Below are positions 1-14,631 of a stretch of DNA of 14,631 nt, piece by piece. Position 1 is the first letter of the stretch, and every line of letters begins with the position of its first letter. Origin of the DNA: a virus (lineage: Duplodnaviria > Heunggongvirae > Uroviricota > Caudoviricetes). The stretch covers positions 1-14,631 of IMG/VR virus record IMGVR_UViG_2671180727_000007; one strand, 5' to 3'. Under the pieces are notes generated by a model, which was not told the DNA's origin, did not search any database, and saw nothing but the letters and a program-made list of their open reading frames with translations. Position numbers and translations under genes: made by a program.

Positions 1-98
<98 letters not shown>

Positions 99-129
99 TA
101 ATAAAGAAAACCCGCCTGTTGGCGGGTTT
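99..129 (-). terminator. Intrinsic terminator-like hairpin (stem AAACCCGCC / GGCGGGTTT, loop 117..120) with a T-rich tract on the minus strand; weaker on the plus strand
   Basis: 9-bp GC-rich inverted repeat at 108..116 and 121..129; minus-strand downstream sequence is TTTTCTTTATT. Sits immediately inside the left terminal repeat boundary. Confidence 0.45.
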
Positions 130-404
130 ATAAAGAATTATGGCGCTTGTTGAGGAAGTCACTCCTCTTACGCACTTTGTTTTGCCATGCCGGCAGTTAG
201 CTTCTGCCTTTGACTATTCATGCGGCAACCCCGCATTTCGCCACAATGGGCAATTCACTTTTATGGAATAAACTGGCCGTTGTGTCGATTTAATTAGCAT
301 GGCCTTACCATGCTAATTTATTCAACTTGTACAATCCTACAAATCTATCCACTCAGGCTTACACCGTCTTCGTTATTGTAGAAATGAGGATCATCAGCGT
401 TGAA

Positions 405-620
405 TCAGCTTAGAGCAACGACATTTGCTGCTGCTGGGCCTTTAGCCCCATTCTCGATAGAGAATTCGACCTGCTGGCCTTCTTCCAAAGTGCGGAAATT
501 ATTACTCTGAATTGCCGAAAAATGTACAAAAACATCTTTACTGCCATCAGCAGGAGAAATAAAGCCAAAGCCTTTATCAGAGTTAAACCATTTTACTAAA
601 CCAGTCATTTTATTAGACAT
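405..620 (-). CDS. CspA-family cold-shock protein (70 aa + stop)
   Basis: Translation [38 protein letters not shown]... carries the RNP1/RNP2-like motifs (KGFGFI, VFVHF) of the E. coli CspA/B/G/I family. Internal ATG at 618..620 is preceded by AAGAAGG 7 nt upstream; the 103-aa form in the ORF track is a leader read-through. Confidence 0.88.
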
Positions 621-835
621 AGATATTACCTTCTTAATTTTGTGAGCCACATAGTGCGGCGAGAATTTGATCTGTATAGATTGGGACTTACTTAGGCACT
701 TAAGGAGGAGACTCACGAAGAAGGGAAATCAGAAGATAACACTGAACTGAGACTGCTTTACTAAAACTGCTTACATAAGGTCTGTCTTGCAAACCAACGA
801 TGCTATTAACGCATACCCCTTCTTTTCATGCAACC
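621..835 (-). promoter_or_regulatory. csp promoter and long 5' leader with cold-box-like element
   Basis: On the minus strand: -35 TTGCAT (828..833), 18-nt spacer, -10 TTAATA (804..809), then a leader starting ~TTGGTTTGCAAGACAGACC (779..797) that resembles the cspA cold box as I recall it, giving a ~180-nt 5' UTR as in cold-shock genes. Confidence 0.55.
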
Positions 836-949
836 TTTATTTTTCAAAGATAACTAATTTTTGTCACCATTGGTTTAGTAAACGTTAACGAACCAGACGA
901 TGCCAGACACCTTTACAGAGAACAGATGCCCGCCAATTGGCGGGCATCA

Positions 950-1513
950 TTATGCGCATTTCGCAATATCTTTGCGGCGTTTAATCAGTTTCTCCGCAAT
1001 TTGCTCTATTTCGTTGAAATCTTTCGAGACGCTGTTTCGAAGCGCCAGATTCCATTTACTCAAAGTTCGGGCATTTTGGACAATTTGATCGCCCTCTTTA
1101 AGTCTTCCGTTATTCATGAGCCATTCAGCCACATCAGCCCAATCCCAGAGAGGAGACTGGCCTTTTATGCGTTGTACAGGGCAAGGGAAGTCGCCGCTTC
1201 CGCGCTTACCGTCTTTGAGCAACGCCACTGCCTGGCGAGACAGGTCTGTCAGTTCCGCGATATCGCTTAAGCCCACAAGAGCCGAGTCGACGGATTCAAC
1301 AATTGCACCGATACCGGCTGATTCAATATTGTCGACCGCAGATGCGATAGCTGCATCAAGTGATTGTGCTTCGCGGTCAAATTCTACATAGACGGAGTTT
1401 CCATATGCGCAAATTAGCGCATCGTCACAGCCGTTTTGGTACAGCGCGTCTTCCAGTCCTTCCGTCTCATACGATACGCCTGAGAGCGTCAGAGTGAAGT
1501 TATAAAGCGCCAT
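950..1513 (-). CDS. Hypothetical protein (187 aa); C-terminal region looks helix-turn-helix-like; second gene of a two-gene operon
   Basis: ORF with ATG at 1511..1513 preceded by AGGAAA 4-5 nt upstream; the track's 199-aa form starts at a TTG 12 codons earlier. No family recognised from sequence. Confidence 0.6.
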   Translation of the reverse strand: MALYNFTLTLSGVSYETEGLEDALYQNGCDDALICAYGNSVYVEFDREAQSLDAAIASAVDNIESAGIGAIVESVDSALVGLSDIAELTDLSRQAVALLKDGKRGSGDFPCPVQRIKGQSPLWDWADVAEWLMNNGRLKEGDQIVQNARTLSKWNLALRNSVSKDFNEIEQIAEKLIKRRKDIAKCA

Positions 1514-1573
1514 AGTTTTCCTTTGAAGATAGTTGGACAGTTTCTGCAAAAGGCGGCTAATGCCGCCTTGAAA

Positions 1574-1798
1574 TCATTTACAACGATCAACCATTCGTTT
1601 GATCTGTTTGGCATGGTTTTCGGGATTACCCGGAGTCGACCATACGCTCATTTGGTGAGTTTTGTGTTCACCTTCTGGATTACCGCATCGCAGTCTGCAA
1701 AAACAATGTGCAGCACCACCAGCTGCTACCCAGATCCAGCCTTTACTTAATGCATAGTCAATGGCTGCTTGAATATGCTTATTCGGATGTTGCTTCAT
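1574..1798 (-). CDS. Hypothetical small Cys/His-rich protein (74 aa); first gene of the operon
   Basis: ATG at 1796..1798 with GGAGG SD (complement of 1802..1806) and a consensus promoter immediately upstream; contains an HCFCRLRCG cluster. Family not recognised. Confidence 0.6.
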   Translation of the reverse strand: MKQHPNKHIQAAIDYALSKGWIWVAAGGAAHCFCRLRCGNPEGEHKTHQMSVWSTPGNPENHAKQIKRMVDRCK

Positions 1799-1815
1799 TC
1801 GCCTCCGATAATAGT

Positions 1816-1845
1816 ATTCTATTCACAGTGTTGACATCTGTCAAC
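1816..1845 (-). promoter_or_regulatory. Near-consensus sigma70 promoter (TTGACA-17 bp-TAGAAT) for the minus-strand operon, with the -35 embedded in a 16-bp perfect palindrome GTTGACA-TC-TGTCAAC (1830..1845)
   Basis: -35 is the complement of 1839..1844, -10 the complement of 1816..1821, spacer 17 bp; the palindrome overlapping the -35 is operator-like. Confidence 0.65.
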
Positions 1846-2010
1846 GGCGACTGAATTTCATCCGTTCATGCCACACCCCCATCCATCTCATGTATGTGAC
1901 CTAAAGATGGTCAGCACAGCTTACCAAAATAAGACAACTAATTATCTTCGGTGATCTCAATATTTTCCCCTGAACAAAGTTGACATGACGCCATAAACCC
2001 GTTCTCTGTT

Positions 2011-2019
2011 TGATATAAT
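2011..2019 (+). promoter_or_regulatory. Extended -10 promoter element TGaTATAAT, candidate promoter of the plus-strand recombination operon
   Basis: TG at 2011..2012 and TATAAT at 2014..2019; the -35 at 17-bp spacing is poor (CCATAA), and a TTGACA at 1980..1985 is too far upstream to pair. Confidence 0.4.
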
Positions 2020-2052
2020 TGATACAGATTTTATAAGTAGGAACCTATTAGA

Positions 2053-2484
2053 GTGAACACTGATATTTTTTCTAAAATCATGGCCGATCTGGAGTTCGAC
2101 CGCGACAACCTTGAGGAAGTATGGCGTAAACAGCCACGGCTTTTAATGGAGTATGGGTCAAAACTAGCGCAGGCAGATCGAGATGTCGCAGAGGCAAAAC
2201 TTAACCTTGAAGCTGTTGAAGCAAAGCTATACGACACAGAGCGTAAGAACTTGAGTATGAACGGCATTAAGTTCAACGAGTCTGTACTGGACGCTAAGGT
2301 TAAAACAAACCCACAGTATCTGTCTAAACGGCAGAAGTTGGATGAAGCACGGCACATCGCAGACATATACAAACATGCTGTCGCCGCCTTTTCGCATCGC
2401 CGAGACATGATCGTTCAGGCGTCAAAGATGGCCATCGTTGAATTAGAGCGATTAGGCTCTGAACGCTTTATTACTCCCCGTTGA
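2053..2484 (+). CDS. Hypothetical coiled-coil protein (143 aa), possibly a UvsY-like recombination mediator
   Basis: GTG start at 2053 with AGGAA 9 nt upstream (an internal ATG at 2080 has no SD). Size, predicted helical character and position next to gp32-like and UvsX-like genes; sequence resemblance to T4 UvsY is loose and from memory only. Confidence 0.5.
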   Translation: MNTDIFSKIMADLEFDRDNLEEVWRKQPRLLMEYGSKLAQADRDVAEAKLNLEAVEAKLYDTERKNLSMNGIKFNESVLDAKVKTNPQYLSKRQKLDEARHIADIYKHAVAAFSHRRDMIVQASKMAIVELERLGSERFITPR

Positions 2485-2601
2485 TTTTTGATAGATAATA
2501 AGTAAGTACTGATCTATCATTTAACAGCTCGAAAGAGCCACGAATGAACGAAAGCCCAACGCGCATAGCGCCATCGGCCAAATCACAACAAGGAGAAACA
2601 C

Positions 2602-3630
2602 ATGTCTAAGACATTACTTGATTTGCTTAACAAAACTCGTGAAGACATTGCCGCCAAACGTGGCAACAACGTTGATCTGACTCGCTTAAAAGACGGCGTC
2701 AACTATATCCGCATCTTCCCGAATAAAGACGACCCAAACGGTAAGTTCTTCCAGACTTTCGGTATGCACTACGTTAAGTATCAGAACGAGGAAGGTAAAG
2801 AAGCAACCAACGCTTATATTTGTGAGCAACATACTCACGGTCGCGCTTGTCAGCTATGCGAAATGGTTATGGAAGGTCGCGCTCGTCACAAGGGTAACAA
2901 AGCAATGGAAGAACGCATCGGTCAAATGCGTGCCACTCCTCGCTACCTGGTCAACGGCATTCTTTCTGCTCGTGAGGATTTCGCAGATGCTGAGAAATGC
3001 CAGTTAATCGAGCTGCCGTCTACTGTATTCGATGATATCTGCAAAGCAATCACCGAAGACATCGCTGATGATATCGGCAATCCACTGAGCAAAGAGGAAG
3101 GCTACGCATTCCTGATTAAACGTACTGGCTCTGGTCGCGATACCAAATATGACGTCTCGCCTAAGCGTAAAGTCTACAAAGGCGATATCGAAGATAAATT
3201 CTGGAACACCCAGCATGATCTGATCGCATACGCAAATCAGGCTGATGAAACTCGTCTTCTGTCGACAGTTCGCACTATGGGTCGTCTGATTGGCATCGCT
3301 GCACCAACTGCCGCAGCATCTGCACCAGCAATTTCCTCAACCGCGAAAACATCGGCTGCGGCACTACCTGGATTTGGCTCTGTCACTGGTCATACGGAGG
3401 GTGCGACTGCTGTAGCAACCGCTCACACCCCAGCTTCTGAACCAACCAGTCTGGTTGATGAAGAAATCCTCCGTGCCGTTGAAACTGAATTTAAACCAGA
3501 AGCAAGTTCCGCTGCCGTTGCCGTATCAGTCAAAGAGTCTGAAGCAGTCGCAGCGACATCTGTAGCAACCGCATCTGCGACGGAAGATGAAGGTCTGGAT
3601 GACCTACTGAGAGAGCTGGACTCTCTGTAA
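2602..3630 (+). CDS. gp32-like single-stranded DNA-binding protein with zinc-binding motif and acidic C-terminal tail
   Basis: GGAG SD 7 nt upstream of ATG. Cys74-X8-Cys83-X2-Cys86 with nearby His residues (CEQHTHGRACQLC) resembles the T4 gp32 Zn subdomain; C-terminus TEDEGLDDLLRELDSL is acidic as in SSBs; residues ~231-330 are Ala/Ser/Thr-rich low complexity. Confidence 0.7.
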   Translation: MSKTLLDLLNKTREDIAAKRGNNVDLTRLKDGVNYIRIFPNKDDPNGKFFQTFGMHYVKYQNEEGKEATNAYICEQHTHGRACQLCEMVMEGRARHKGNKAMEERIGQMRATPRYLVNGILSAREDFADAEKCQLIELPSTVFDDICKAITEDIADDIGNPLSKEEGYAFLIKRTGSGRDTKYDVSPKRKVYKGDIEDKFWNTQHDLIAYANQADETRLLSTVRTMGRLIGIAAPTAAASAPAISSTAKTSAAALPGFGSVTGHTEGATAVATAHTPASEPTSLVDEEILRAVETEFKPEASSAAVAVSVKESEAVAATSVATASATEDEGLDDLLRELDSL

Positions 3631-3646
3631 TCCCATTACGTGACCA

Positions 3647-3675
3647 GTAAGGCGTCTACGGACGCCTTACTTTTT
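3647..3675 (+). terminator. Rho-independent terminator after the SSB gene
   Basis: Stem GTAAGGCGTC (3647..3656), loop TACG, GACGCCTTAC (3661..3670), followed by TTTTT. Confidence 0.7.
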
Positions 3676-3690
3676 GGAAGGAATGTACCG

Positions 3691-4635
3691 GTGAATTATC
3701 TCTTCGTAGATGGCAATAGCCTGGGTTATTACCACCAACAATCTGACAAATTGCACAACGGCGAAATGGAAGTACAGGCTGCTTTCGGCTTTGTTAAGAA
3801 CGTCCGTCGTTATGCCTCCATCCTCCATGCCCGACCTATGATTCTTTGGGATGGATTTAGTGACAAGCGTCGCGACTTTTACCCGGACTACAAAGCAAAT
3901 CGCGACGACGATCCTGATATGAAAAAGATGAAGGAAGGCTTTGCTGTCCAGAAGCCATACATCCTCAAAATGATGACCGCGCTTGGTGTTAACCAAATCA
4001 TTGCAAAAGATGCAGAAGCGGATGATCTGGCCGGGCTGCTGGTATCCCGCATGGCACCGCAGCCAACCGTTGAACACATCTATCTGTTAACAGGCGATAG
4101 CGACTGGCTTCAGTTAGTTCGTGAAAACGTAAGCTGGGTAAGCCTGCGTGAAGACGCCAAAAACAAGCAGGTTAATTTTGAGCAATTTGCGGAGCTGACA
4201 GGATTCGCCACGCCTCGCGCATTTTTGGAAGCAAAAGCATTACAAGGCGATAACTCGGACAACATTAGCGGTGTTGGAGGCATTGGTGCTGGCGGTGCGA
4301 AAGAGCTGCTGCATGAATGGGGAAGTGTCGCAACGATGGTACGCGGCATCAACGACGGCTCAATCGTGGTTAATAAAGGGCGTCATAAGACCGCCTTCAA
4401 CAAACTAGCGAAGAATGCCTTCAACGAGAAAACAGGCTGTCGAATGCTCGAAGCGTTCAAGAGAAACATCACGCTAATGAACCTGATTGAGACGAAGTTT
4501 CCGCCTACCGAAATCGAAACAATCAAAGGCAATCGTGACGTGAAAGCATTCGAGCAAATGTGCTACGAGCTGAATTTCCGTTCGTTCCTTGAAGACCTTG
4601 AAGTGTTTGTTCTTCCATTCGAAAGGTATTGCTAA
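3691..4635 (+). CDS. 5'-3' exonuclease / flap endonuclease (T4 RNase H-like, FEN family)
   Basis: Motifs LFVDGNSL, RRDFYPDYKANR (cf. T4 RNase H RRDFAYYYKKNR), AEADDLAG, LLTGDSDW and an H3TH-like GVGGIGAGGA. GTG at 3691 with GGAAGG 9 nt upstream is preferred over the in-frame ATG at 3640, which lies inside the preceding terminator hairpin. Confidence 0.85.
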   Translation: MNYLFVDGNSLGYYHQQSDKLHNGEMEVQAAFGFVKNVRRYASILHARPMILWDGFSDKRRDFYPDYKANRDDDPDMKKMKEGFAVQKPYILKMMTALGVNQIIAKDAEADDLAGLLVSRMAPQPTVEHIYLLTGDSDWLQLVRENVSWVSLREDAKNKQVNFEQFAELTGFATPRAFLEAKALQGDNSDNISGVGGIGAGGAKELLHEWGSVATMVRGINDGSIVVNKGRHKTAFNKLAKNAFNEKTGCRMLEAFKRNITLMNLIETKFPPTEIETIKGNRDVKAFEQMCYELNFRSFLEDLEVFVLPFERYC

Positions 4636-4901
4636 TGCTTAAATCGATTATCAATGGCGCTACAACCACCCCTGCCCAACTAGCAAAAGAGATTGTCTTT
4701 TATCACGGTGAGTACGCTGTCATCGCACTGCCGTCAATTCTAGGCGCTGCCGGAATGAAAGCGACAGATCGCGAGTTTGGATTAGTCAGCGAGCAGGTCG
4801 TAAAAATCCTCGCTCGTGTATCCAGACTCCTTAACCACGATGCGATTGTATTCGATGAATCCGCCGCTTTAAAACGAATCAACGAAACAAAAGGAGCCTG
4901 A
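4635..4901 (+). CDS. Hypothetical protein (88 aa), translationally coupled to the exonuclease gene
   Basis: ATG overlaps the exonuclease stop (TAATG) with GAAAGG 8 nt upstream; ends 2 nt before the recombinase ATG. Confidence 0.5.
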   Translation: MLKSIINGATTTPAQLAKEIVFYHGEYAVIALPSILGAAGMKATDREFGLVSEQVVKILARVSRLLNHDAIVFDESAALKRINETKGA

Positions 4902-4903
4902 TC

Positions 4904-5977
4904 ATGGCAAAAGGAAAATCCGCACTGGCACTTGCTCTGAAAAAGAAAATCGGTAGCAACGACGAAATTCAGAAAGTAACTCATTGGATTGATACAGGCT
5001 TTCCACCGTTAAACAAAGCTATTTCTGGTCGTTACGATGGCGGCTTCCCATGTGGTCGTATCGTCGAAGTATTCGGTCCTCCAAGTGCAGGGAAAACGTT
5101 CCTTGCAACAGCAGCGATGATCTCCGCTCAAAAACAAGATGGTCTGGCGGTATTCCTCGATCATGAAAACAGTTTTGACGTTGGCCTGGCTGTCGCCAAT
5201 GGCCTGAACGCAGATGAGGATGACGGTCAGTGGGTATACAAGCAGCCAGATACCTTCGAAGACTCTGTAGAGTTGATCGGCACAATACTTAAATTGGTTC
5301 GTGATGAAGAGCTTATCCCCGAATCAGCACCAATCTGTATCGTGGCTGACTCTCTTGCGTCTATGGTTCCGAACTCCAAAGCCGAGAAGTTCGAAAAGAT
5401 GGCTGAAGGCACTGCCAAAGACAAAGATCAGCTAAACATGAACGACAATACGGCACTGGCTCGTGCGACGAGTGCGAACTTCCCTACTCTGGCTTTGTGG
5501 GCACGCAAATACAACGCCTGCATCATCTTCTTGAATCAGGTTCGCACAAAAATCGGTGTAATGTTTGGCGACCCTACTACGTCGCCAGGTGGAGATTCAC
5601 CGAAGTTCTACGCTTCTGTACGTATCCGTCTTGGTGCATCGGTGATGAAGGATGGTAAAGAGAAGATCGGCCAGGACGTAGGCGCAGAATGCATCAAAAA
5701 CAAAGTTGCACCACCGTATGGCAAATGCACCTGGAAATTCTACTTCGATCCTACTCGTGGCCTCGACGTTATCGAATCGCTCGTCGAGTACATGCTGGAA
5801 GAAGGATACCTGCCAAAGAACGCCAGCGGGCGAGTTGAAATTGGTGACAAGAAATACACCAAATCGCAGATCGTCGAGATGTATCGGGAGAAGCCACTGG
5901 CTGAAATCATTGCGGCTTTGCAGGCAATCGACGACCGAAGAGCAAAAGACAACCCCACCGAGTCAGTAGAAGAGTAA
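4904..5977 (+). CDS. RecA/UvsX-family recombinase
   Basis: Walker A GPPSAGKT (RecA: GPESSGKT), AVFLDHENSFD, Walker B-like ICIVADSLASM; GGAG SD 7 nt upstream of ATG. Confidence 0.8.
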   Translation: MAKGKSALALALKKKIGSNDEIQKVTHWIDTGFPPLNKAISGRYDGGFPCGRIVEVFGPPSAGKTFLATAAMISAQKQDGLAVFLDHENSFDVGLAVANGLNADEDDGQWVYKQPDTFEDSVELIGTILKLVRDEELIPESAPICIVADSLASMVPNSKAEKFEKMAEGTAKDKDQLNMNDNTALARATSANFPTLALWARKYNACIIFLNQVRTKIGVMFGDPTTSPGGDSPKFYASVRIRLGASVMKDGKEKIGQDVGAECIKNKVAPPYGKCTWKFYFDPTRGLDVIESLVEYMLEEGYLPKNASGRVEIGDKKYTKSQIVEMYREKPLAEIIAALQAIDDRRAKDNPTESVEE

Positions 5978-5982
5978 ACACA

Positions 5983-6006
5983 AGGCGTCCACAGGACGCC
6001 TTTTTT
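5983..6006 (+). terminator. Rho-independent terminator after the recombinase gene
   Basis: Stem AGGCGTCC (5983..5990), loop ACA, GGACGCCT (5994..6001), then TTTTTT. Confidence 0.75.
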
Positions 6007-6011
6007 ATCTC

Positions 6012-6040
6012 TTGAAAATATATAAGCACTTACTTATTAT
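6012..6040 (+). promoter_or_regulatory. Sigma70-like promoter TTGAAA-17 bp-TATTAT upstream of the membrane/SPFH operon
   Basis: -35 at 6012..6017, -10 at 6035..6040, 30 bp upstream of the ATG at 6070. Confidence 0.5.
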
Positions 6041-6069
6041 TTTCGCATAACAACCACATAGGAAAACAC

Positions 6070-6270
6070 ATGATCAAAATCTATCTATTGGCAGTAGCCA
6101 CAGGCCTTTCAGTGGCTCTCATCTACGGTTTACTGGTTCCGTCGCTGATTTCTACCAAGAGTGATTTAGCCGTCATGTTTGGAGTTATCGTTGGTTTTGG
6201 TGCTCCTGTAATCGGTCTTATTGCTGGTCGTAAGTTTATCAACTCACTAATCAAAGCAAAGGGGAAATAA
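6070..6270 (+). CDS. Small membrane protein with two predicted TM helices (66 aa)
   Basis: Two hydrophobic stretches (LLAVATGLSVALIYGLLV; VMFGVIVGFGAPVIGLIAG); AGGAAA SD; ends 3 nt before the SPFH gene. Confidence 0.55.
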   Translation: MIKIYLLAVATGLSVALIYGLLVPSLISTKSDLAVMFGVIVGFGAPVIGLIAGRKFINSLIKAKGK

Positions 6271-6273
6271 GTA

Positions 6274-7104
6274 ATGAAGAAAGGTTTACTTGCAGTTGCT
6301 CTGGCGGCTATTTGCACAATGGGTCTTACTGGCTGTGATCGCGTGGAGCCTGGATACGTTGGCATCAAAGTAAACAAATTAGGTGAAGACAAAGGGATTG
6401 GTGAAGTGGTTGGCGTTGGTCGCCAATGGACAGGTCTTAACACCGAACTTTACGTATTCCCGACCTTCAAACAAATGAAGACCTACGACGAGCCGTTCAC
6501 ATTCCAGATGAGTGACGGTACTGCTATTGGTCACAAAATTGGCGTTGCGTATCTGGTTAATCGTGACAAGGTAACGACGGTGTTCCAGACCTATCGCAAA
6601 GGCGTAGACGATATCACCGAATCAGATCTGCGTCAGAAAATTGCCGACTCTCTAAACCGTTTGGCCAGCCGTATGACCACTGACTCATTTATCGACGGTG
6701 GTAAGGCACAATTGCTGGACAACGCACTGAAAGATATTCAGAAAGAGATGTCTCCGGTTGGTATTGAGGTACTGAGCCTGTCATGGGTTGGAAAGCCTGA
6801 TTACCCAAAAACTGTCATTGAATCTATTAACGCCAAAGTAACGGCTAACCAGCGTACTCTGCAACGTCAGCAGGAAGTTGAACAACGTAAAGCTGAGGCG
6901 AATATGCTACGTGAACAGGCTAATGGTGAAGCTGATGCTATCCGTGCTCGTGCGCAAGCAGAAGCAGACGCCATTCGTCTGCGCGGTGAAGCTCTGCGTC
7001 AAAACCCGAACGTTATGGAACTGGAAGCCATCAATAAATGGAATGGCCAGTTACCGCAGTACATGACTCAAGGGGCTAACACTCCTTTCATTACAGTGAA
7101 ATAA
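6274..7104 (+). CDS. SPFH/band-7 (prohibitin/HflK-like) domain lipoprotein
   Basis: N-terminal signal peptide with lipobox LTGC; central SPFH-like region; C-terminal coiled coil with AEADAIR repeats typical of stomatin/HflKC proteins. Confidence 0.75.
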   Translation: MKKGLLAVALAAICTMGLTGCDRVEPGYVGIKVNKLGEDKGIGEVVGVGRQWTGLNTELYVFPTFKQMKTYDEPFTFQMSDGTAIGHKIGVAYLVNRDKVTTVFQTYRKGVDDITESDLRQKIADSLNRLASRMTTDSFIDGGKAQLLDNALKDIQKEMSPVGIEVLSLSWVGKPDYPKTVIESINAKVTANQRTLQRQQEVEQRKAEANMLREQANGEADAIRARAQAEADAIRLRGEALRQNPNVMELEAINKWNGQLPQYMTQGANTPFITVK

Positions 7105-7120
7105 CTCCCCTAAAAAGTTC

Positions 7121-7145
7121 AGGCGTCCAGTTGGACGCCTTTTTT
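7121..7145 (+). terminator. Rho-independent terminator after the SPFH gene
   Basis: Stem AGGCGTCC (7121..7128), loop AGTT, GGACGCCT (7133..7140), then TTTTT; same stem as the terminator at 5983. Confidence 0.75.
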
Positions 7146-7195
7146 ATCGCAATTATCTTATTAAGAAAACAATTTGTTTAAAAGGATAAGAAAAC

Positions 7196-7621
7196 ATGAC
7201 AGCTATTAAGAAACTCTACGATGCCGCAAACGTGGCTCTGGATGTTATTGATGATGAAGTAGCAAAAGGCTTTCCTGAACCTGATTGGGCGCATCAGCTA
7301 CGAAACGCTATCGCAGAAATGACCCCACCAGATCCAACCCCCGACGAGACAGACTGGCAGCGATTCATCCGTATGTACGCTCAGGAAATAGGTCCAACGC
7401 CAACGGCAGAGCAGGCAATGCTGCTGAAATACTTCAAAGAGGCGGGAGAGGATTTACCAATTGATGACTCAGCATATTGGTTCCACTGCGCATGGCGTAA
7501 GTATGACGTGATATTCACACAAGGCATGGGAAGCAAAGATATGGTTGTGTGGCATCTACTCCATATAGACACAGCCGTTGACAGAGTTATTGAACAGTTT
7601 TTCCCTAAACAAGAAGATTGA
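7196..7621 (+). CDS. Hypothetical acidic protein (141 aa)
   Basis: ORF with AGGA SD 8 nt upstream; Asp/Glu/Pro-rich; no recognisable family. Confidence 0.6.
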   Translation: MTAIKKLYDAANVALDVIDDEVAKGFPEPDWAHQLRNAIAEMTPPDPTPDETDWQRFIRMYAQEIGPTPTAEQAMLLKYFKEAGEDLPIDDSAYWFHCAWRKYDVIFTQGMGSKDMVVWHLLHIDTAVDRVIEQFFPKQED

Positions 7622-7676
7622 TCGCCTATTCATAACTAACAAAATAAGTAAACACTAACCACAAAAGGAAAAACAC

Positions 7677-7952
7677 ATGAGAGTTTTAGTTCGAATCGTT
7701 ACCAGCACTGTCTATGACGTGTTTCCGCTTTTTATGGTCAAAGCCGATGGCCTTAACGACGAAGAAACTGACGCGCTGATCCAGCGTATTCTCGTTGAAT
7801 ATACAGGTCATGACGCTGATTCAGTGATGGTTGATGATGATGGTGTTTGTTGGCATAACGGCAACTGTTGGTACGTAGAAGAGACTCAACAAATCAGTGA
7901 TGAAGATGCCGAACATCTTGAGCGTATTTTAAGCATCAGCACTTTTGAGTGA
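7677..7952 (+). CDS. Hypothetical highly acidic small protein (91 aa)
   Basis: ORF preceded by the conserved AAGGAAAAACACATG initiation context; roughly 24% Asp+Glu. Confidence 0.55.
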   Translation: MRVLVRIVTSTVYDVFPLFMVKADGLNDEETDALIQRILVEYTGHDADSVMVDDDGVCWHNGNCWYVEETQQISDEDAEHLERILSISTFE

Positions 7953-7991
7953 GTTTACAGTAAAATTTATATAAGTTAGTATCTACCTATC

Positions 7992-8171
7992 ATGAAGATT
8001 TTTATTGAATACTTGTTACTCATCGTTTCAATAGCTTTTGTCATCGACTGCATTTTCACTGGTGTCATTCGTAAAGTCTTTTCCCCGGTGCACGACGTAG
8101 TCATAAACGCTTTGGCTATCGTGCTCGTATTTAATTCAGCATTTGATGTAATCAAAGAGGTGGCAGCATGA
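7992..8171 (+). CDS. Putative small hydrophobic membrane protein (59 aa), below the ORF-track size cut-off
   Basis: My own translation: MKIFIEYLLLIVSIAFVIDCIFTGVIRKVFSPVHDVVINALAIVLVFNSAFDVIKEVAA; stop overlaps the next ATG (ATGA). No clear SD. Confidence 0.4.
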   Translation: MKIFIEYLLLIVSIAFVIDCIFTGVIRKVFSPVHDVVINALAIVLVFNSAFDVIKEVAA

Positions 8172-8503
8172 AGGCCATCCCATTCGCGCTGTTGTTCCTT
8201 TCTTCGATCGTTGTGGCCGACACCACTGTTTATCAGTGTGAAATGTCTGTAGCCGACGTTAAGAATGGCGCTCTTACCGACGTCATAAAAGCACCATATG
8301 GAGCGATGGTCGTAGACAGCGGCGACCAGTTCTATGTTGTGCGTGACGATCGAGTGTTGTCATCCCCATATCTCACAAATCGTAATGGCAAATTAACCGG
8401 CGTCGGAGAAGACCACTTCGTATACAACAAATACAAGGGCTTCTATGGCGTTCACGCTTCTCAGCAAAGCTACCTTTTCGATGACTGCAAGGAGGTTGGA
8501 TAA
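8168..8503 (+). CDS. Hypothetical secreted protein (111 aa) with N-terminal signal peptide
   Basis: MKAIPFALLFLSSIVVA-DTT has a signal-peptide profile; GAGG SD upstream. Confidence 0.6.
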   Translation: MKAIPFALLFLSSIVVADTTVYQCEMSVADVKNGALTDVIKAPYGAMVVDSGDQFYVVRDDRVLSSPYLTNRNGKLTGVGEDHFVYNKYKGFYGVHASQQSYLFDDCKEVG

Positions 8504-8715
8504 TGGCATTAACACTGGCAGGTCTGGAAATCGAGAAAACAAGCGGCTACTGGCGTGCTAAGGGTTTCAAGCAGCCTGGCATTCTTGAGCGTCTGGAACG
8601 TGAAGATGGGTATATCGTCCACCAGCGGCGTGAATGGCGTATGTACGATCCAGAAACAGGAAAACTGACTACAAAAGCCGGAACACTTTGGGGTCTGTTG
8701 AAGAAAATACACTAA
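8503..8715 (+). CDS. Hypothetical protein (70 aa), translationally coupled
   Basis: ATG overlaps the previous stop (TAATG); AGGAGG SD 9 nt upstream. Confidence 0.5.
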   Translation: MALTLAGLEIEKTSGYWRAKGFKQPGILERLEREDGYIVHQRREWRMYDPETGKLTTKAGTLWGLLKKIH

Positions 8716-8722
8716 TAGCACC

Positions 8723-9205
8723 AACCACTGCGGTGAGTAGTCTACTCACCGCATTCGTATCCAGCTCATTATCCACTGTAGTCAGTAACAAAACCTTCCT
8801 ACATATCTGCTAACCACTGTAGCGAGTAGACAGCCTTTCATTCGCATCAAACAACCACTATGGTGAGTATTGGAGTGAGATGTCCAGCGGGTATCCACTA
8901 TGGTGAGTAAGCCTTTGCTGTTTTCAGTGGATATCCACTCGCCACAGTGGATACGCTCAAAGATGAGGGCGACAACAACCACTATAGACAGTAAATTTTC
9001 CAAGATACCCAGTGACCACTAACCTCGCAGCCCTTGTTTCATCAGTGTTAGTGATCACTAACATTTAATTCAGTATTTGCATTCTACTGCCTACAGTGGT
9101 TATCAACAGATAACGATACTCACTATAGTGGATAGCGAATTACAGATATAAGTAAGGCTCACTACAGTGGATAGTGAGCCTTACTACTAACTACAGTGGT
9201 TGGGC
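8723..9205. repeat. Iteron array downstream of repA (incA-like control locus): about 8 copies of core AACCACTNTRGTGAGTA at ~40-bp spacing, then 4 copies in the opposite orientation (CTAYAGTGGWT), around a 16-bp perfect palindrome GTTAGTGATCACTAAC (9047..9062)
   Basis: CCACT cores at 8725, 8773, 8814, 8856, 8895, 8935, 8979, 9016; AGTGG cores at 9095, 9127, 9166, 9195; the same core as the upstream iterons. Confidence 0.8.
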
Positions 9206-10260
9206 TATTTGCGAGTCTTTGCCTTGCGCAACTCTTCGAGAAGCGCCAGTTCTTCTTTACTCAACATGACCATTTTGCCTTCTTTTTCGTCAGGCACAAC
9301 GTCGATAATGTCATCTTGATTCTCATCTGGGAGGCTATATTCCGTCTCATCATTATCGATTTTTGTTGATATTTGTGCCTGGCGTAACTTTGGCCGCCTA
9401 TAGTGGATGACGAAGTAGACCGAGTTTCCGCGCTTAACTTCCGTGTAATCGAGATATCCTATCTCTCGCAGCTGTTCCATAGCCTTTCTTACCGTCGCAT
9501 TCTGAGTAATAGTGCGACTTGTCAGATTAAGTCTGGCGCGTAAACGGGCTAGTGATATTGGTGCCGGATCAGGCGGCAAACTTTCAATAAAAGTATAAAG
9601 CGCCTGAGCGGATTCTTTTCTTGAGAGTTCGTTTATAGCCCGGAGTTGCAGAAGAACCTTTTTGTCGAACTGGTAGAGTTCGAAAATCTTGGGATCTGCT
9701 TTCAGTTCGACCGTATCGTGCTTGACACTATATTTTGCCGTTTGCACAAGATGCGTTACGTAAAACTCATCAGAGCCTTTGCTACGGAACGAGATGGTAT
9801 TTGTGGCAATACGGCTTAGCGAACTGTCCAGGCGTTTGCGTAACTTCGCTGATGACCTGGCGGTCGGAATGCCACACAGCCTTACAAACTCAACGAACGG
9901 CAACGTGACAGTATCGCCAACGACCTTGTGTTTGGCAAACGCGTGGATTATTCCCACCCACGTTTTAAAGTCGTTATCCATATCAAGCCGAAGGCCAGAG
10001 ATCCTTATGTCTTCGTACCCTTCGGCTTTTGCCAGAGACAGCTGTTTGAGTTCAGCAGAGGCATCCATAGAGACCATTTGCCCCTTTCTTCCTCTGGATG
10101 TCGATTTCAGCGTCGGAACGAAGAGGCCCAGACGCATCAAAGCAACAGGCTGAACAGTGTTATTAGTGTTAGGAACCAACGTAACAACTTCGCCTGTCTT
10201 TTTATCTGTTTCTGAAAATGCTTCAACGATCGCTATGTTTTTATTGCCGTTTTCGCTCAT
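9205..10260 (-). CDS. repA: Iteron-binding plasmid replication initiator RepA (RepFIB/P1 RepA-like family)
   Basis: 351-aa ORF flanked by iteron arrays. N-terminal [17 protein letters not shown] and later blocks ([30 protein letters not shown]; [29 protein letters not shown]; IGYLDY) match my recollection of RepFIB/P1-type RepA; not verified by search. Confidence 0.85.
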
Positions 10261-10305
10261 TCCAAATGTCTCTTGTTATTCGACGGCTTTGGTGGCCTTT
10301 GCTGA

Positions 10306-10428
10306 TTACAGTGGATAGTAGCACTCATCACAGCGGTTATCCTACCGTCTATAGTGGTTTTTCTCCTCTCTATAGTGGTTGCTTTGCTCCCTATAGTGGA
10401 TTATTCGCTCTCTATAGTGGATATCGAT
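10306..10428. repeat. Origin-proximal iteron array: six tandem ~21-bp direct repeats (consensus CTCTATAGTGGWT...)
   Basis: TATAGTGG at 10350, 10371, 10392, 10413 (exact 21-bp period), plus ACAGTGG at 10308 and ACAGCGG at 10331. Confidence 0.85.
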
Positions 10429-10470
10429 CATGTCTGAAGGCAGATGGCACAACGGTTTGAGGTGGGCGGG

Positions 10471-10520
10471 GATCTTATTGGGTCTTTATGGGTCTCTTTG
10501 GTTCTCTTTGTGATCTGAAT
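10471..10520. repeat. Five tandem 10-bp repeats (GATCTTATTG / GGTCTTTATG / GGTCTCTTTG / GTTCTCTTTG / TGATCTGAAT), DUE/13-mer-like, only two retaining GATC
   Basis: Exact 10-bp periodicity visible directly in the sequence. Confidence 0.7.
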
Positions 10521-10534
10521 TACTGGATCGGGCC

Positions 10535-10590
10535 TGTGGATAAAAATCAGAGAATTTCAAGAACAGGTAACTCTACTCTTCTGTGGATAT
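10535..10590. promoter_or_regulatory. DnaA boxes: TGTGGATAA (10535..10543, perfect consensus) and TGTGGATAT (10582..10590, 8/9)
   Basis: Match to the DnaA box consensus TTATCCACA / TGTGGATAA; further 8/9 matches at 10677..10685 (TTATCCATA) and 10908..10916 (AGTGGATAA). Confidence 0.7.
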
Positions 10591-10699
10591 TTAAGGACAT
10601 AAGAATCATGACTAAGAGTAGAGTTTAAAATATATCTATGTATATCAGTATGTTAATGAAGAATTAAGTCATTAAGTTATCCATAAAAGACAATGTGCT

Positions 10700-10810
10700 C
10701 TACTCTCTACAGTGGATATATACAGCTCTCCAGAGTGGTTGTTTTACTCTTCATAGCGGTTATTCAGCTCTCTACAGAGGTTTCTTTGCTCTCCATAGTG
10801 GATGGCAACA
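10700..10810. repeat. Second iteron array: five ~21-bp direct repeats, more degenerate
   Basis: CTCTACAGTGGATATATACAG, CTCTCCAGAGTGGTTGTTTTAC, TCTTCATAGCGGTTATTCAG, CTCTCTACAGAGGTTTCTTTG, CTCTCCATAGTGGATGGCAAC. Confidence 0.75.
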
Positions 10811-10848
10811 CCCTTTCAGACCAGTAACCGCAACGGCTAGAGGCGATC

Positions 10849-10910
10849 GGGGATCTCTTTGGATCTTCTATTTGATCTTACTTGGGATCTCTTATTTGGA
10901 TCTATCCAGT
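10849..10910. repeat. GATC-rich 11-13-bp repeats resembling oriC 13-mers (GATCTnTTnTTTT): five GATC sites
   Basis: GATC at 10852, 10862, 10874, 10886, 10899 within GATCTCTTTGG, GATCTTCTATTT, GATCTTACTTGG, GATCTCTTATTTG, GATCTATCC; followed by a DnaA-box-like palindrome TATCCAGTGGATA. Confidence 0.7.
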
Positions 10911-11003
10911 GGATAACTGGGATAAGTAAAACAGGCAAATGCAGATTAAGGTATGCCTAATGAGTTATCGTAGCATCGGCCAATAACTACTGAAAAAACG
11001 ATT

Positions 11004-11648
11004 ATGGATCTAAAACGCACGCGCTGGGTTCGTCGTCTTGAGGACGGCTCCTACACTATCGAATCAAATTCCAACCTGAATAAGCAGAAGTTACTTTGTG
11101 ATATCTGCGGTATAGCGGCGAAGTGCCCGATCTACGAAACCAGAATTAAACTTGATAAGGCTGGTGTGAACTTTCATTTGAATAGTTGTATCAGGTACGT
11201 TCCATTGCTCGCATTTCGTAAACCGATCATCGGATTGGATGCGCCCTACTTCAACACACTCCGTTCAGGGGTAACGTGGCGAGATCGTTTATCACCAGAC
11301 AAGCTGATTTGCCTCGTATCCGCAGACACAGGGAAAATCATCCGTTTTGGGAAAGTAGACAAGGTTTACTCAGGCCCAGTTGACGAGATGTTGCGGAAAC
11401 ACAGCCGGTTTAATCACCTCTGCATGGGTGGTGAGAAAATCGAGAAGGTTGAAGAAGTGATCCGCAAATCCTACGGACACTTCCTGACCAAAGATAGCCT
11501 GCTCACTGCAATCTACATCAGACATGTAAAACGTGAGTTCGACCTTGAATACCATAGCGAAGAAGAACTGAACCTTGTCGATCCACGTCCTAAAGCTGGC
11601 GTCATAAGCATAAATGCAGCGCGTAAAAAGCCCACTGACGCGCTGTAA
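11004..11648 (+). CDS. Hypothetical protein (214 aa) with an N-terminal Cys cluster (CDICGIAAKC)
   Basis: Long ORF, weak SD; no family recognised. Confidence 0.5.
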   Translation: MDLKRTRWVRRLEDGSYTIESNSNLNKQKLLCDICGIAAKCPIYETRIKLDKAGVNFHLNSCIRYVPLLAFRKPIIGLDAPYFNTLRSGVTWRDRLSPDKLICLVSADTGKIIRFGKVDKVYSGPVDEMLRKHSRFNHLCMGGEKIEKVEEVIRKSYGHFLTKDSLLTAIYIRHVKREFDLEYHSEEELNLVDPRPKAGVISINAARKKPTDAL

Positions 11649-11903
11649 CCCTCCAGATCGTATATTGGCGTAGATAGAATCTACGCCCCCCTCAAAATAG
11701 CTCTCATAGCGTTCTACAGTGATCCTGTCTTATTTTTAGTCATACAGACAAGCAAAGTTGCGCCACGATAAATAGGTATATACTTACTTATAAATTTTGT
11801 ATATTAAGGCGCTCGTTTCATTCCTAACATACCGTTATGCATAGTTGTTTACCTCCTCATTGCTCTTAGAATTTGTATCAAAATAACCACAAAGGAAAAA
11901 CAC

Positions 11904-12989
11904 ATGACTTTGCCATACGGCGTCATTTCTGACTGCCACTACCACAAATGGGATGCGTTCTCCACGACGAACGCTGAGGGGCTTAACTCCAGACTTGAAA
12001 TACAGTTGGAAGCAACGAAAGAAGCAGCCATCGCCATGAAGAAGGCCGGTTGTAAGTACATGTTGGTTGCCGGTGATACATTTCACGTCCGAGGAACTGT
12101 GTCCCCTTCTGTTTTGCATTACGTAACTGAAACGTACAAGTGGATTATCAACGAGCTTGATCTGACAGTAGTAATGCTGGCCGGTAATCACGATCTTGAA
12201 ACCAACGATTCAGTATATAGCGCCAACGCAGCAGCATCGCTGAGTTCTATCGGCGTGGTAATCGTATGTGGCAAGCGCCCACACTCAATAAAAATTGGCG
12301 ATGTGACTGTCCACCTGATTAGCTGGCGTAACAATCATGCGGAGCTTATCAGCGATCTGAAAGCATTACGTAAGAGCGTAGAAGGTGATAATCATGACGT
12401 TGTTATCCATACATCCATTAACAAAGCCATTCCAACAATGCCTGACGTCGGTATCGATGCGCAGGAGTTAAAGGATATCGGCTTTCGTCTCGTGCTTAGT
12501 GGGCATTACCACAACCACAAAGAGGTCATTCCTGGAGTTATCAGTGTCGGTGCACTGACTCATCAAAATTGGGGAGATGTTGGATCTCTGGCTGGCTACA
12601 TGATCGTAAACCCGGACGGCAGTTTCAGTCACTACGAAACCAGTGCGCCTAAATTCATTAACCTGGAAGATGATGTTGCTGATGACCAAATTCGCGGCAA
12701 CTACGTGCGTTTCCGCGCCGTAATTGAGAACGATGAAGAAGGCATTAAGTACCAGAACATCCTCAAAACAATGGGTGCAAAAGGTGTCGTGTGCAACTTC
12801 ATCCGTAAGTCATCAATGATGGAAGGTACAGCCAGCACAACTGAAACCAGCAAAATCGATAGCCTGGGAGAGTCGGTATCTGCTTATTGCAAGATTGTCC
12901 ACGATACTGACGGCGGATTTGATCTGAGCAAATTGGATATTTTGTGTCAGGAAATCCTCACCGAAGCGGAGAGTTCGGAGGCTGTGTGA
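11904..12989 (+). CDS. sbcD: Mre11/SbcD-like calcineurin-type phosphoesterase nuclease (T4 gp47-like)
   Basis: Metallophosphatase motifs in order: SDCHYH (D-x-H), AGDTFH (GD), LAGNHD (GNHD), SGHYHNH (GH-x-H); preceded by the AAGGAAAAACACATG initiation context. Confidence 0.85.
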   Translation: MTLPYGVISDCHYHKWDAFSTTNAEGLNSRLEIQLEATKEAAIAMKKAGCKYMLVAGDTFHVRGTVSPSVLHYVTETYKWIINELDLTVVMLAGNHDLETNDSVYSANAAASLSSIGVVIVCGKRPHSIKIGDVTVHLISWRNNHAELISDLKALRKSVEGDNHDVVIHTSINKAIPTMPDVGIDAQELKDIGFRLVLSGHYHNHKEVIPGVISVGALTHQNWGDVGSLAGYMIVNPDGSFSHYETSAPKFINLEDDVADDQIRGNYVRFRAVIENDEEGIKYQNILKTMGAKGVVCNFIRKSSMMEGTASTTETSKIDSLGESVSAYCKIVHDTDGGFDLSKLDILCQEILTEAESSEAV

Positions 12990-13218
12990 AGCAAAGTCGT
13001 TATGGGAGCTTTCGAGACTTTGCCATCACGATGAAAAGACTTGAACGAGGCCAGACGGTGATGTTTCACAAGCCCTACCCGCCACAAGGAAATCCCGTAG
13101 CGTTTTATCTTGGAAGGTTAACAAGAAAAGGCGTATTGAGGCGCAGATCCTTCCCGGCGCATACGGAGTTCAGATTGAAAGAAGGCCAAAAGCTAACACG
13201 CGGTATCAGAGGTGTTAT

Positions 13219-13222
<4 letters not shown>
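12986..13222 (+). CDS. Small, highly basic hypothetical protein (78 aa) coupled between the sbcD-like and sbcC-like genes
   Basis: GTG at 12986 overlaps the sbcD stop (GTGA) with GGAGG 5 nt upstream; its stop overlaps the sbcC ATG (ATGA). About 18 Lys/Arg against 4 Asp/Glu. The track's 92-aa form starts inside sbcD. Confidence 0.5.

Positions 13223-14631
<1,409 letters not shown>

Follow-up and report, generated by a model that had tools for sequence, protein, structure and literature searches.

What does the long repeat array directly downstream of repA do in a phage-borne replicon: does it set copy number, help to segregate the element, or end transcription? We examined this question in a 14,631-nt stretch of a Caudoviricetes virus (IMG/VR record IMGVR_UViG_2671180727_000007, positions 1 to 14,631), here called the window. 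The original prediction had described a two-sided iteron array switching orientation around a palindrome, and had proposed either copy-number control by handcuffing, as in P1 incA, or a centromere-like function.

Positions 8400-11200 of the window show 99.8% identity to Escherichia phage Cyrano, 99.8 to 99.9% identity to many plasmids of ~107 to 126 kb from E. coli and E. albertii, and 83% identity to Salmonella phage SSU5. This makes the window element an SSU5-like phage-plasmid of the pLF82/Cyrano type; over the array (8700-9210), identity to pLF82 is 99.8%. The genes around the replicon, encoding a gp32-like SSB, a 5'-3' exonuclease, RecA, an SPFH protein and SbcCD-like proteins, agree with this assignment, and PLSDB typing places pHCM2, pMT1 and other relatives in IncFIB. 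The recA gene of the window (4904-5977) encodes 357 amino acids, and the RecA of Cyrano (L001, 7238-9577) is annotated with 780; the difference of 1,266 bp matches the shift in coordinates that separates the two sequences upstream of recA. Given this shorter recA and the annotation of a Citrobacter relative as "intein-containing recombinase RecA," the window represents an intein-free relative of pLF82/Cyrano.

The repA gene (9205-10260, minus strand, stop codon at 9205-9207) encodes a predicted iteron-binding initiator of 351 amino acids, in which the Pfam domains Rep3_N (WH1) and Rep3_C (WH2) both score over the cut-off. Analysis by tblastn revealed 47.5% identity to P1/P7 RepA (E value, 1e-71) and 61 to 66% identity to the canonical IncFIB RepA present in thousands of F-like plasmids, which places the initiator in the P1 RepA/RepFIB RepA family. 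NCBIfam returned no named family for RepA or the neighboring genes, and a PDB sequence search with RepA gave no match.

The whole window was scanned with a 21-nt weight matrix derived solely from the 11 iterons that lie upstream of repA; the scan returned 12 sites of 16.3 to 25.9 bits in the intergenic region 8716-9204. At a threshold of 11 bits, 24 sites were detected in the window versus 1.1 in shuffles, and outside the replicon region no site in the window scored above ~10 bits. The core YAGTGGWT occurs 22 times in the window (1.36 expected; a count of 22 was reached in 0 of 200 shuffles), with 12 of these occurrences in the interval 8723-9205. Matrix scores, the shared core and aligned logos agree that one recognition sequence is common to control repeats and origin iterons. 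The predicted sharing of the origin core by repeats of both orientations was thereby confirmed, as a matrix derived from origin iterons recognized all 12 sites. In the alignment of the 12 control iterons, the conserved part extends over only ~18 nt (consensus, TACTCACYAYAGTGGWTA), the core is partly dyad-symmetric (CACTATAGTG), and the spacers are unrelated. Since the spacers between the iterons are unrelated, Tandem Repeats Finder detected no tandem array in 8716-9204. A reading of the region as a 40-bp satellite was rejected on this null result, the repeats being interspersed iterons.

The array begins with a distal block of five iterons on the minus strand, located at 8720-8740 (19.8 bits), 8768-8788 (21.5 bits), 8809-8829 (22.1 bits), 8850-8870 (21.9 bits) and 8890-8910 (23.4 bits). 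The first of these, present in all relatives, begins 5 nt after the upstream cra-like gene ends and overlaps a hairpin at 8729-8753. Two iterons in origin orientation (plus strand) are embedded in this left half at 8915-8935 (19.6 bits) and 8935-8955 (17.0 bits), and they are followed by the eighth iteron, again on the minus strand, at 8974-8994, which has the top score of the array (25.9 bits). An iteron-free stretch of 89 bp follows (8995-9083; 110 bp between the starts of the flanking iterons). The proximal block consists of four iterons in origin orientation on the plus strand at 9084-9104 (22.9 bits), 9116-9136 (20.3 bits), 9155-9175 (17.9 bits), the latter in the top of a hairpin at ~9150-9186, and 9184-9204 (16.3 bits), which ends 1 nt before the repA stop codon. 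In order, the array thus reads five minus, two plus, one minus, the 89-bp gap and four plus. Control iterons are spaced 29 to 48 bp apart (~3 to 4 helical turns), except for one 20-bp pair, compared to 21 to 22 bp at the origin; the six minus-strand iterons follow one another at 48, 41, 41, 40 and 84 bp. The array (8720-9204) lies directly downstream of repA and outside the minimal origin, and it combines mixed orientation with wider-than-origin spacing, the extra plus, plus, minus reversal being a variation.

The array as first described is largely real but idealized. The four iterons predicted on the repA side were exact in number, orientation and position (9084, 9116, 9155 and 9184, all on the plus strand), with the last ending at 9204 just before the stop codon. 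On the left, eight iterons of one orientation had been proposed; instead, six full minus-strand iterons were found (starting at 8720, 8768, 8809, 8850, 8890 and 8974), and the two full plus-strand iterons at 8915 and 8935 had been overlooked. The remaining two proposed units correspond to a weak overlapping core at 8930-8950 (9.8 bits) and a 9-nt half-site, ACCACTAAC, at 9015-9023. Because plus-strand iterons lie among minus-strand ones, the array has three orientation switches rather than a single one, the last spanning the iteron-free stretch 8995-9083 and not the palindrome itself.

We compared this layout with pHCM2 (S. Typhi), pMT1 (Y. pestis CO92), SSU5, two Citrobacter plasmids and further plasmids of E. 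coli, Salmonella and Klebsiella, and added 27 IMG/VR contigs retrieved with a degenerate pattern taken from the iteron-free stretch. The layout was tallied at 35 loci (pHCM2, pMT1, SSU5, Citrobacter, Enterobacter and the IMG/VR contigs) and was kept across them, where the available sequence extends far enough. Relative to the palindrome position, four plus-strand iterons occur at approximately +37, +70, +109 and +138, running into the repA stop codon, and the equivalent of iteron 8 occupies a fixed offset of -73 on the minus strand in nearly all 35 loci. Left of the gap, the loci carry two or three plus-strand iterons at about -172, -152 and -113, with one further plus-strand iteron in relatives 39 bp beyond the equivalent of iteron 7. 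The distal minus-strand block ranges from five units (pLF82 type and pHCM2) to nine units in relatives, in steps of 40 to 41 bp, as expected for a noncoding tunable array. In the right-hand half of the array, mean column identity is 0.945 for iteron columns and 0.854 for spacer columns. In K. oxytoca pKO_JKo3_2 (L043; AP014953.1, positions 1-1096), an insertion sequence with ISxac2-type transposase genes replaces the whole distal block, leaving the iteron-free stretch and the four proximal iterons. As this 104-kb plasmid is complete, the distal block seems not to be needed for replication, which is circumstantial evidence for a control role.

Upstream of repA, six origin/promoter iterons with a spacing of 21 to 22 bp lie directly next to the gene at 10299-10425 (plus strand) and presumably pair with the control array. 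A second, origin-like set of five plus-strand iterons spaced 21 to 23 bp apart is located at 10700-10806, and both sets are kept in pHCM2, pMT1 and SSU5. The region upstream of repA is thus organized as two origin-like modules in tandem, at 10299-10591 and 10700-10916, either of which may fire and may pair with the control array. The first combines its six iterons with 10-bp repeats of the GATC/GGTCT type, partly decayed, and with two DnaA boxes, one perfect (TGTGGATAA, 10536-10544) and another at 10583-10591; in the second, the five iterons are followed by six GATC sites with a period of 11 to 12 bp (10845-10902) and a DnaA-box-like site resembling TTATCCACT (10907-10916). Another iteron-like site (9391-9411, plus strand, 14.5 bits) lies inside the repA coding sequence at codons encoding VIHYRR and scores 15.6 to 17 bits in all relatives examined. 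It could be an extra RepA site or simply reflect coding constraint.

Furthermore, we analyzed whether the same anatomy exists in replicons with related initiators. For P1, the five incC iterons of the annotated record supplied the matrix for the scan. In P1 incA, iterons 7 to 9 have the incC orientation, with the ninth abutting the repA stop codon, iterons 1 to 6 are inverted, and the spacing is 30 to 31 or 40 to 41 bp versus 21 to 22 bp at the origin. In a canonical FIB replicon (L038), the first downstream iteron is origin-oriented at the rep stop codon and the rest are inverted, with a gap of ~110 bp inside the array. A Pantoea plasmid (L039), whose RepA is 69% identical and whose iteron is almost identical to that of the window, carries one origin-oriented iteron ~70 nt beyond the stop codon and then many inverted ones. 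In P1, the FIB replicon, the Pantoea plasmid and the window alike, the upstream iterons are followed by GATC repeats and then a DnaA box. Since P1, FIB and Pantoea show the scheme too, the orientation switch inside the downstream array is a family trait. The mixed orientation of the window array therefore reads as something that control loci of this family inherit, and not as a special symmetry.

Because of the RepA homology and the anatomy shared with P1 and IncFIB, region 8716-9204 probably serves a P1/RepFIB-type iteron replicon as its locus for negative control and incompatibility, bound by RepA and acting by handcuffing. P1 incA is annotated in the P1 record as an incompatibility determinant with RepA-binding iterons, and it reportedly sets copy number through RepA-mediated pairing with the origin, as described in the work of Chattoraj, Abeles and Austin and cited in PMC11983097. 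For the present replicon, RepA monomers would bind the 12 control iterons that share the origin core, and RepA-RepA contacts would pair the array with the origin iterons upstream of repA, either in cis, with the 1.1 kb of repA looped out, or in trans, joining sister copies. Such handcuffing would sterically block origin opening and thereby keep the copy number of the prophage-plasmid low. In addition, bound RepA would be stored on the array, which, if supplied in trans, would make a co-resident plasmid incompatible. RepA binding, pairing and an effect on copy number are the parts of this scheme that we infer from the homology and layout described above. In IncFIB, the downstream EFGHIJ block alone cures the FIB replicon in trans and the origin block does not, and the authors of that study favor inter- and intramolecular handcuffing (PMC11983097). 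Two features of the window fit an incA-type locus less well: the extra reversal (two plus-strand iterons followed by a minus-strand one), which P1 incA lacks, counts against it, and a conserved iteron-free core at 9007-9045 is left over. Within the literature searched, no data on RepA binding, pairing, copy number or incompatibility were found for this replicon group; the pMT1 sequence papers (PubMed 9826348 and 9748454) may already draw the pMT1 iterons.

Alternatively, the array might be a pure titration sink that binds RepA and lowers the free pool without any pairing with the origin. Twelve high-scoring sites outside the origin could indeed sequester RepA, and the varying number of units among relatives would suit a dosage device; as far as the sequence goes, handcuffing and simple titration would be equally compatible with it. 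However, with an autoregulated RepA, whose promoter lies within the origin iterons according to the P1 annotation, titration alone would be buffered. Chattoraj's review of 2000 is said to treat this buffering by RepA autoregulation as an established argument for P1 and F. The FIB data likewise favor a direct interaction between downstream and upstream iterons (PMC11983097), and we consider pure titration unlikely.

The region also separates two convergent genes, and it might mainly terminate the cra-like and repA transcripts, the repeats being incidental. A strong hairpin is located directly 3' of each gene. The one at 8729-8753, behind the cra-like gene, has a folding energy of -18.9 kcal/mol (z = -5.3), and the one at ~9150-9186, behind repA in the minus-strand RNA, has a 15-bp stem and -26.3 kcal/mol (z = -5.2); the repA-side stem is kept in relatives. 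Neither hairpin carries a U-tract, however, and a terminator scan of the array found nothing. Two hairpins do not explain 12 conserved iterons over 489 bp either, and termination as the main function is quite improbable. It may rather be an added function, compatible with the control role. Each hairpin embeds an iteron, so that at these sites bound RepA could disturb termination and vice versa. A promoter consensus scan of the array gave nothing convincing, the promoter-like matches being the iterons' own TATAGT.

Handcuffing through the 12 iterons, our preferred reading, does not account for the conserved core in the iteron-free stretch. The 89-bp length of this stretch is kept among relatives. 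Within it lies the half-iteron at 9015-9023, and a ~39-nt core at 9007-9045 (ACCCAGTGACCACTAACCTCGCAGCCCTTGTTTCATC) is nearly invariant among relatives, with diverging spacers on either side. For the loci L010 to L036 this invariance is partly by construction, because part of the core was in the retrieval pattern. As a whole, the 89-bp stretch is not better conserved than repA (78 to 83% versus 85%). No IHF consensus was found in it by eye, and an Rfam scan of 8400-11100 (E ≤ 1) returned no RNA family. The 7-mer AGTGATC, common to the iteron-free stretch and the FIB gap, was dismissed as expected by chance. One could picture the stretch, with its core and two phased half-iterons (one of them turned into the palindrome in the pLF82 clade), as an architectural site for RepA dimers or for a bending or host protein; binding would fold the array so that its opposed blocks pair, and would thereby modulate how much of it is free to handcuff the origin. 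We regard this as a speculative and very unlikely addition; if true, the pLF82-specific palindromes would represent evolved retuning of copy number.

The palindromes were also examined on their own terms. The 16-bp palindrome of the original prediction, GTTAGTGATCACTAAC, is present and even extends to a perfect 18 bp, TGTTAGTGATCACTAACA, at 9046-9063. It might be a separate functional site, an operator-like target of RepA dimers or a Dam/SeqA-sensitive switch, that organizes the two opposed blocks. In line with this, each arm resembles the conserved iteron half (TTAGTGAT versus ATAGTGGAT), and six substitutions within 12 bp, four of which perfect the dyad, distinguish the pLF82 clade from all other lineages. 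A second perfect palindrome of 14 bp (AGTGGATATCCACT, 8926-8939), formed by the core of iteron 6 head-to-head with an inverted core, is likewise perfect only in the pLF82 clade, with pHCM2 reading AGCGGATATCTACT. The comparison with relatives, however, speaks against a separate site. The 18-bp palindrome was found in only 6 of the 35 tallied loci, all of the pLF82 type, and in a plasmid of 97% identity (L040). The remaining 29 loci carry the nonpalindromic sequences GTTTGTAACCACTAAC (21 loci) or GTTTGCAACCACTAAC (8 loci) at this position, a more distant Salmonella plasmid carries GTTTGCGAACACTAAC, and no clade outside the pLF82 group that shares the array layout, pHCM2, pMT1 and SSU5 included, has the palindrome. 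The symmetry originally proposed, with the palindrome as its pivot, is not supported.

In pHCM2, pMT1, SSU5 and others, the right arm of this position is instead a second ACCACTAAC half-iteron, 39 bp from the first and in keeping with the ~40-bp phase of the minus-strand sites. Seen against these alignments, the palindrome is best described as a lineage-specific rewrite of a degenerate half-iteron, and the clustered substitutions could have arisen in one step by a quasi-palindrome (template-switch) mutation. Its size is not rare by chance either: perfect palindromes of at least 16 bp occurred in 393 of 2,000 shuffles of the window, and since the window also holds one of 24 bp, the 18-bp palindrome is not statistically special alone. 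That longest palindrome of the window, perfect and GC-rich (GATGCCCGCCAATTGGCGGGCATC, 925-948), may be a terminator stem or an operator. The GATC of the 18-bp palindrome is the sole one within 8716-9204, below the ~2.4 expected for 489 bp, and the site lies ~150 bp beyond the repA stop codon and not at a promoter. Its arms are contiguous, unlike those of known Rep-dimer operators. A Rep-dimer operator at the rep promoter, of the mini-F repE or pPS10 repA type, was rejected because the palindrome is >1.2 kb from the promoter region, and an operator shared among replicons with the same initiator was rejected because 29 of 35 loci and further BLAST-derived relatives are nonpalindromic. Overall, a separate role of the palindrome appears highly improbable, and it is probably not required for function.

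The original prediction had also suggested a look for a partition ATPase outside the window. Such a gene exists in the near-identical phage Cyrano, where a ParA-type ATPase of 222 amino acids is encoded at 29307-29975, ~31 kb from repA, followed by the small gene CYRAN_29 (119-aa product). Cyrano-type ParA occurs in relatives from Escherichia, Salmonella, Enterobacter, Citrobacter and Klebsiella and in at most a handful of Yersinia records; among Yersinia records, P1-type ParA was found in 73 and the array in 63. Elements that share the array thus appear to use different ParA families, and the array seems to travel with RepA and not with one partition system. A parS/parC-type site co-inherited with an adjoining partition operon was rejected on the same two grounds, the distance of ~31 kb and the differing ParA families. 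A long phased-repeat array in a low-copy element, and the lack of an obvious repeat array beside the Cyrano parA gene in a quick scan, might suggest that a partition adaptor protein also uses the array as a centromere. This is hardly credible, given that the repeats are the RepA iterons themselves, that the ParA operon is distant, that ParA families appear to differ among array-bearing elements, and that incA and parS are separate sites in P1. This argument against a centromere, drawn from comparative data, is strong but not absolute.

SSU5-like phage-plasmids such as pLF82, pHCM2 (S. Typhi) and pMT1 (Y. pestis) occur commonly in clinical Enterobacterales, where the dosage of the cargo genes they carry depends on plasmid copy number. 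A 2026 preprint reportedly links RepA and the copy number of a phage-plasmid to heteroresistance. As the likely equivalent of incA, region 8716-9204 offers a defined fragment for curing and incompatibility tools, as done for IncFIB (PMC11983097), and a region in which copy-up mutations may be sought. Distal unit number (five to nine) is a marker that may track copy-number differences between lineages, and the copy number of pKO_JKo3_2, as a naturally occurring deletion variant, would be informative as well. To the concept of iteron control as such, this locus adds nothing new.

Among known systems, the comparison with P1 incA made in the original prediction holds by homology, with 47.5% RepA identity, and by anatomy, with three proximal origin-oriented and six inverted iterons. 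P1/P7 incA and the window share a homologous initiator, control iterons that start from the repA stop codon, a proximal part oriented as the origin and a distal part inverted, and wider spacing than at the origin. In contrast, the two iteron sequences are unrelated (TACTCACYAYAGTGGWT versus GATGTGTGCTGGAGGGAAA), and P1 incA has 9 sites, whereas the window has 12 together with the extra reversal and the 89-bp iteron-free stretch. The window also lacks an adjoining parAB-parS, its neighbor being a convergent cra-like gene, and unlike P1 it carries a second origin-like module upstream.

RepFIB (IncFIB; P307, F and pO157; iterons E to K) has the nearest RepA (61 to 66% identity). Here the left half of the iteron is common to both (ACTSACTACAG), and the arrays agree in a first downstream iteron that is origin-oriented at the stop codon, in other iterons that are inverted, and in a gap of ~110 bp. 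The right half of the iteron differs, reading TGGWT in the window and YTTAT in RepFIB. In addition, the window has four proximal iterons of the same orientation compared to one in RepFIB, and more sites overall, and it is carried by a phage-plasmid, whereas RepFIB is carried by F-like conjugative plasmids.

Mini-F (RepFIA) is more distant: its RepE is a more remote Rep3 protein that is autoregulated via an inverted-repeat operator, and its incC iterons form a single direct-repeat block. Mini-F nevertheless follows the same logic of upstream origin and downstream control as the window, with origin iterons upstream and incC control iterons downstream of repE and Rep-mediated pairing between them (cited in PMC11983097). 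Within this set of systems, region 8716-9204 is the likely counterpart of P1 incA and of IncFIB iterons E to K, and an ordinary member of its kind.
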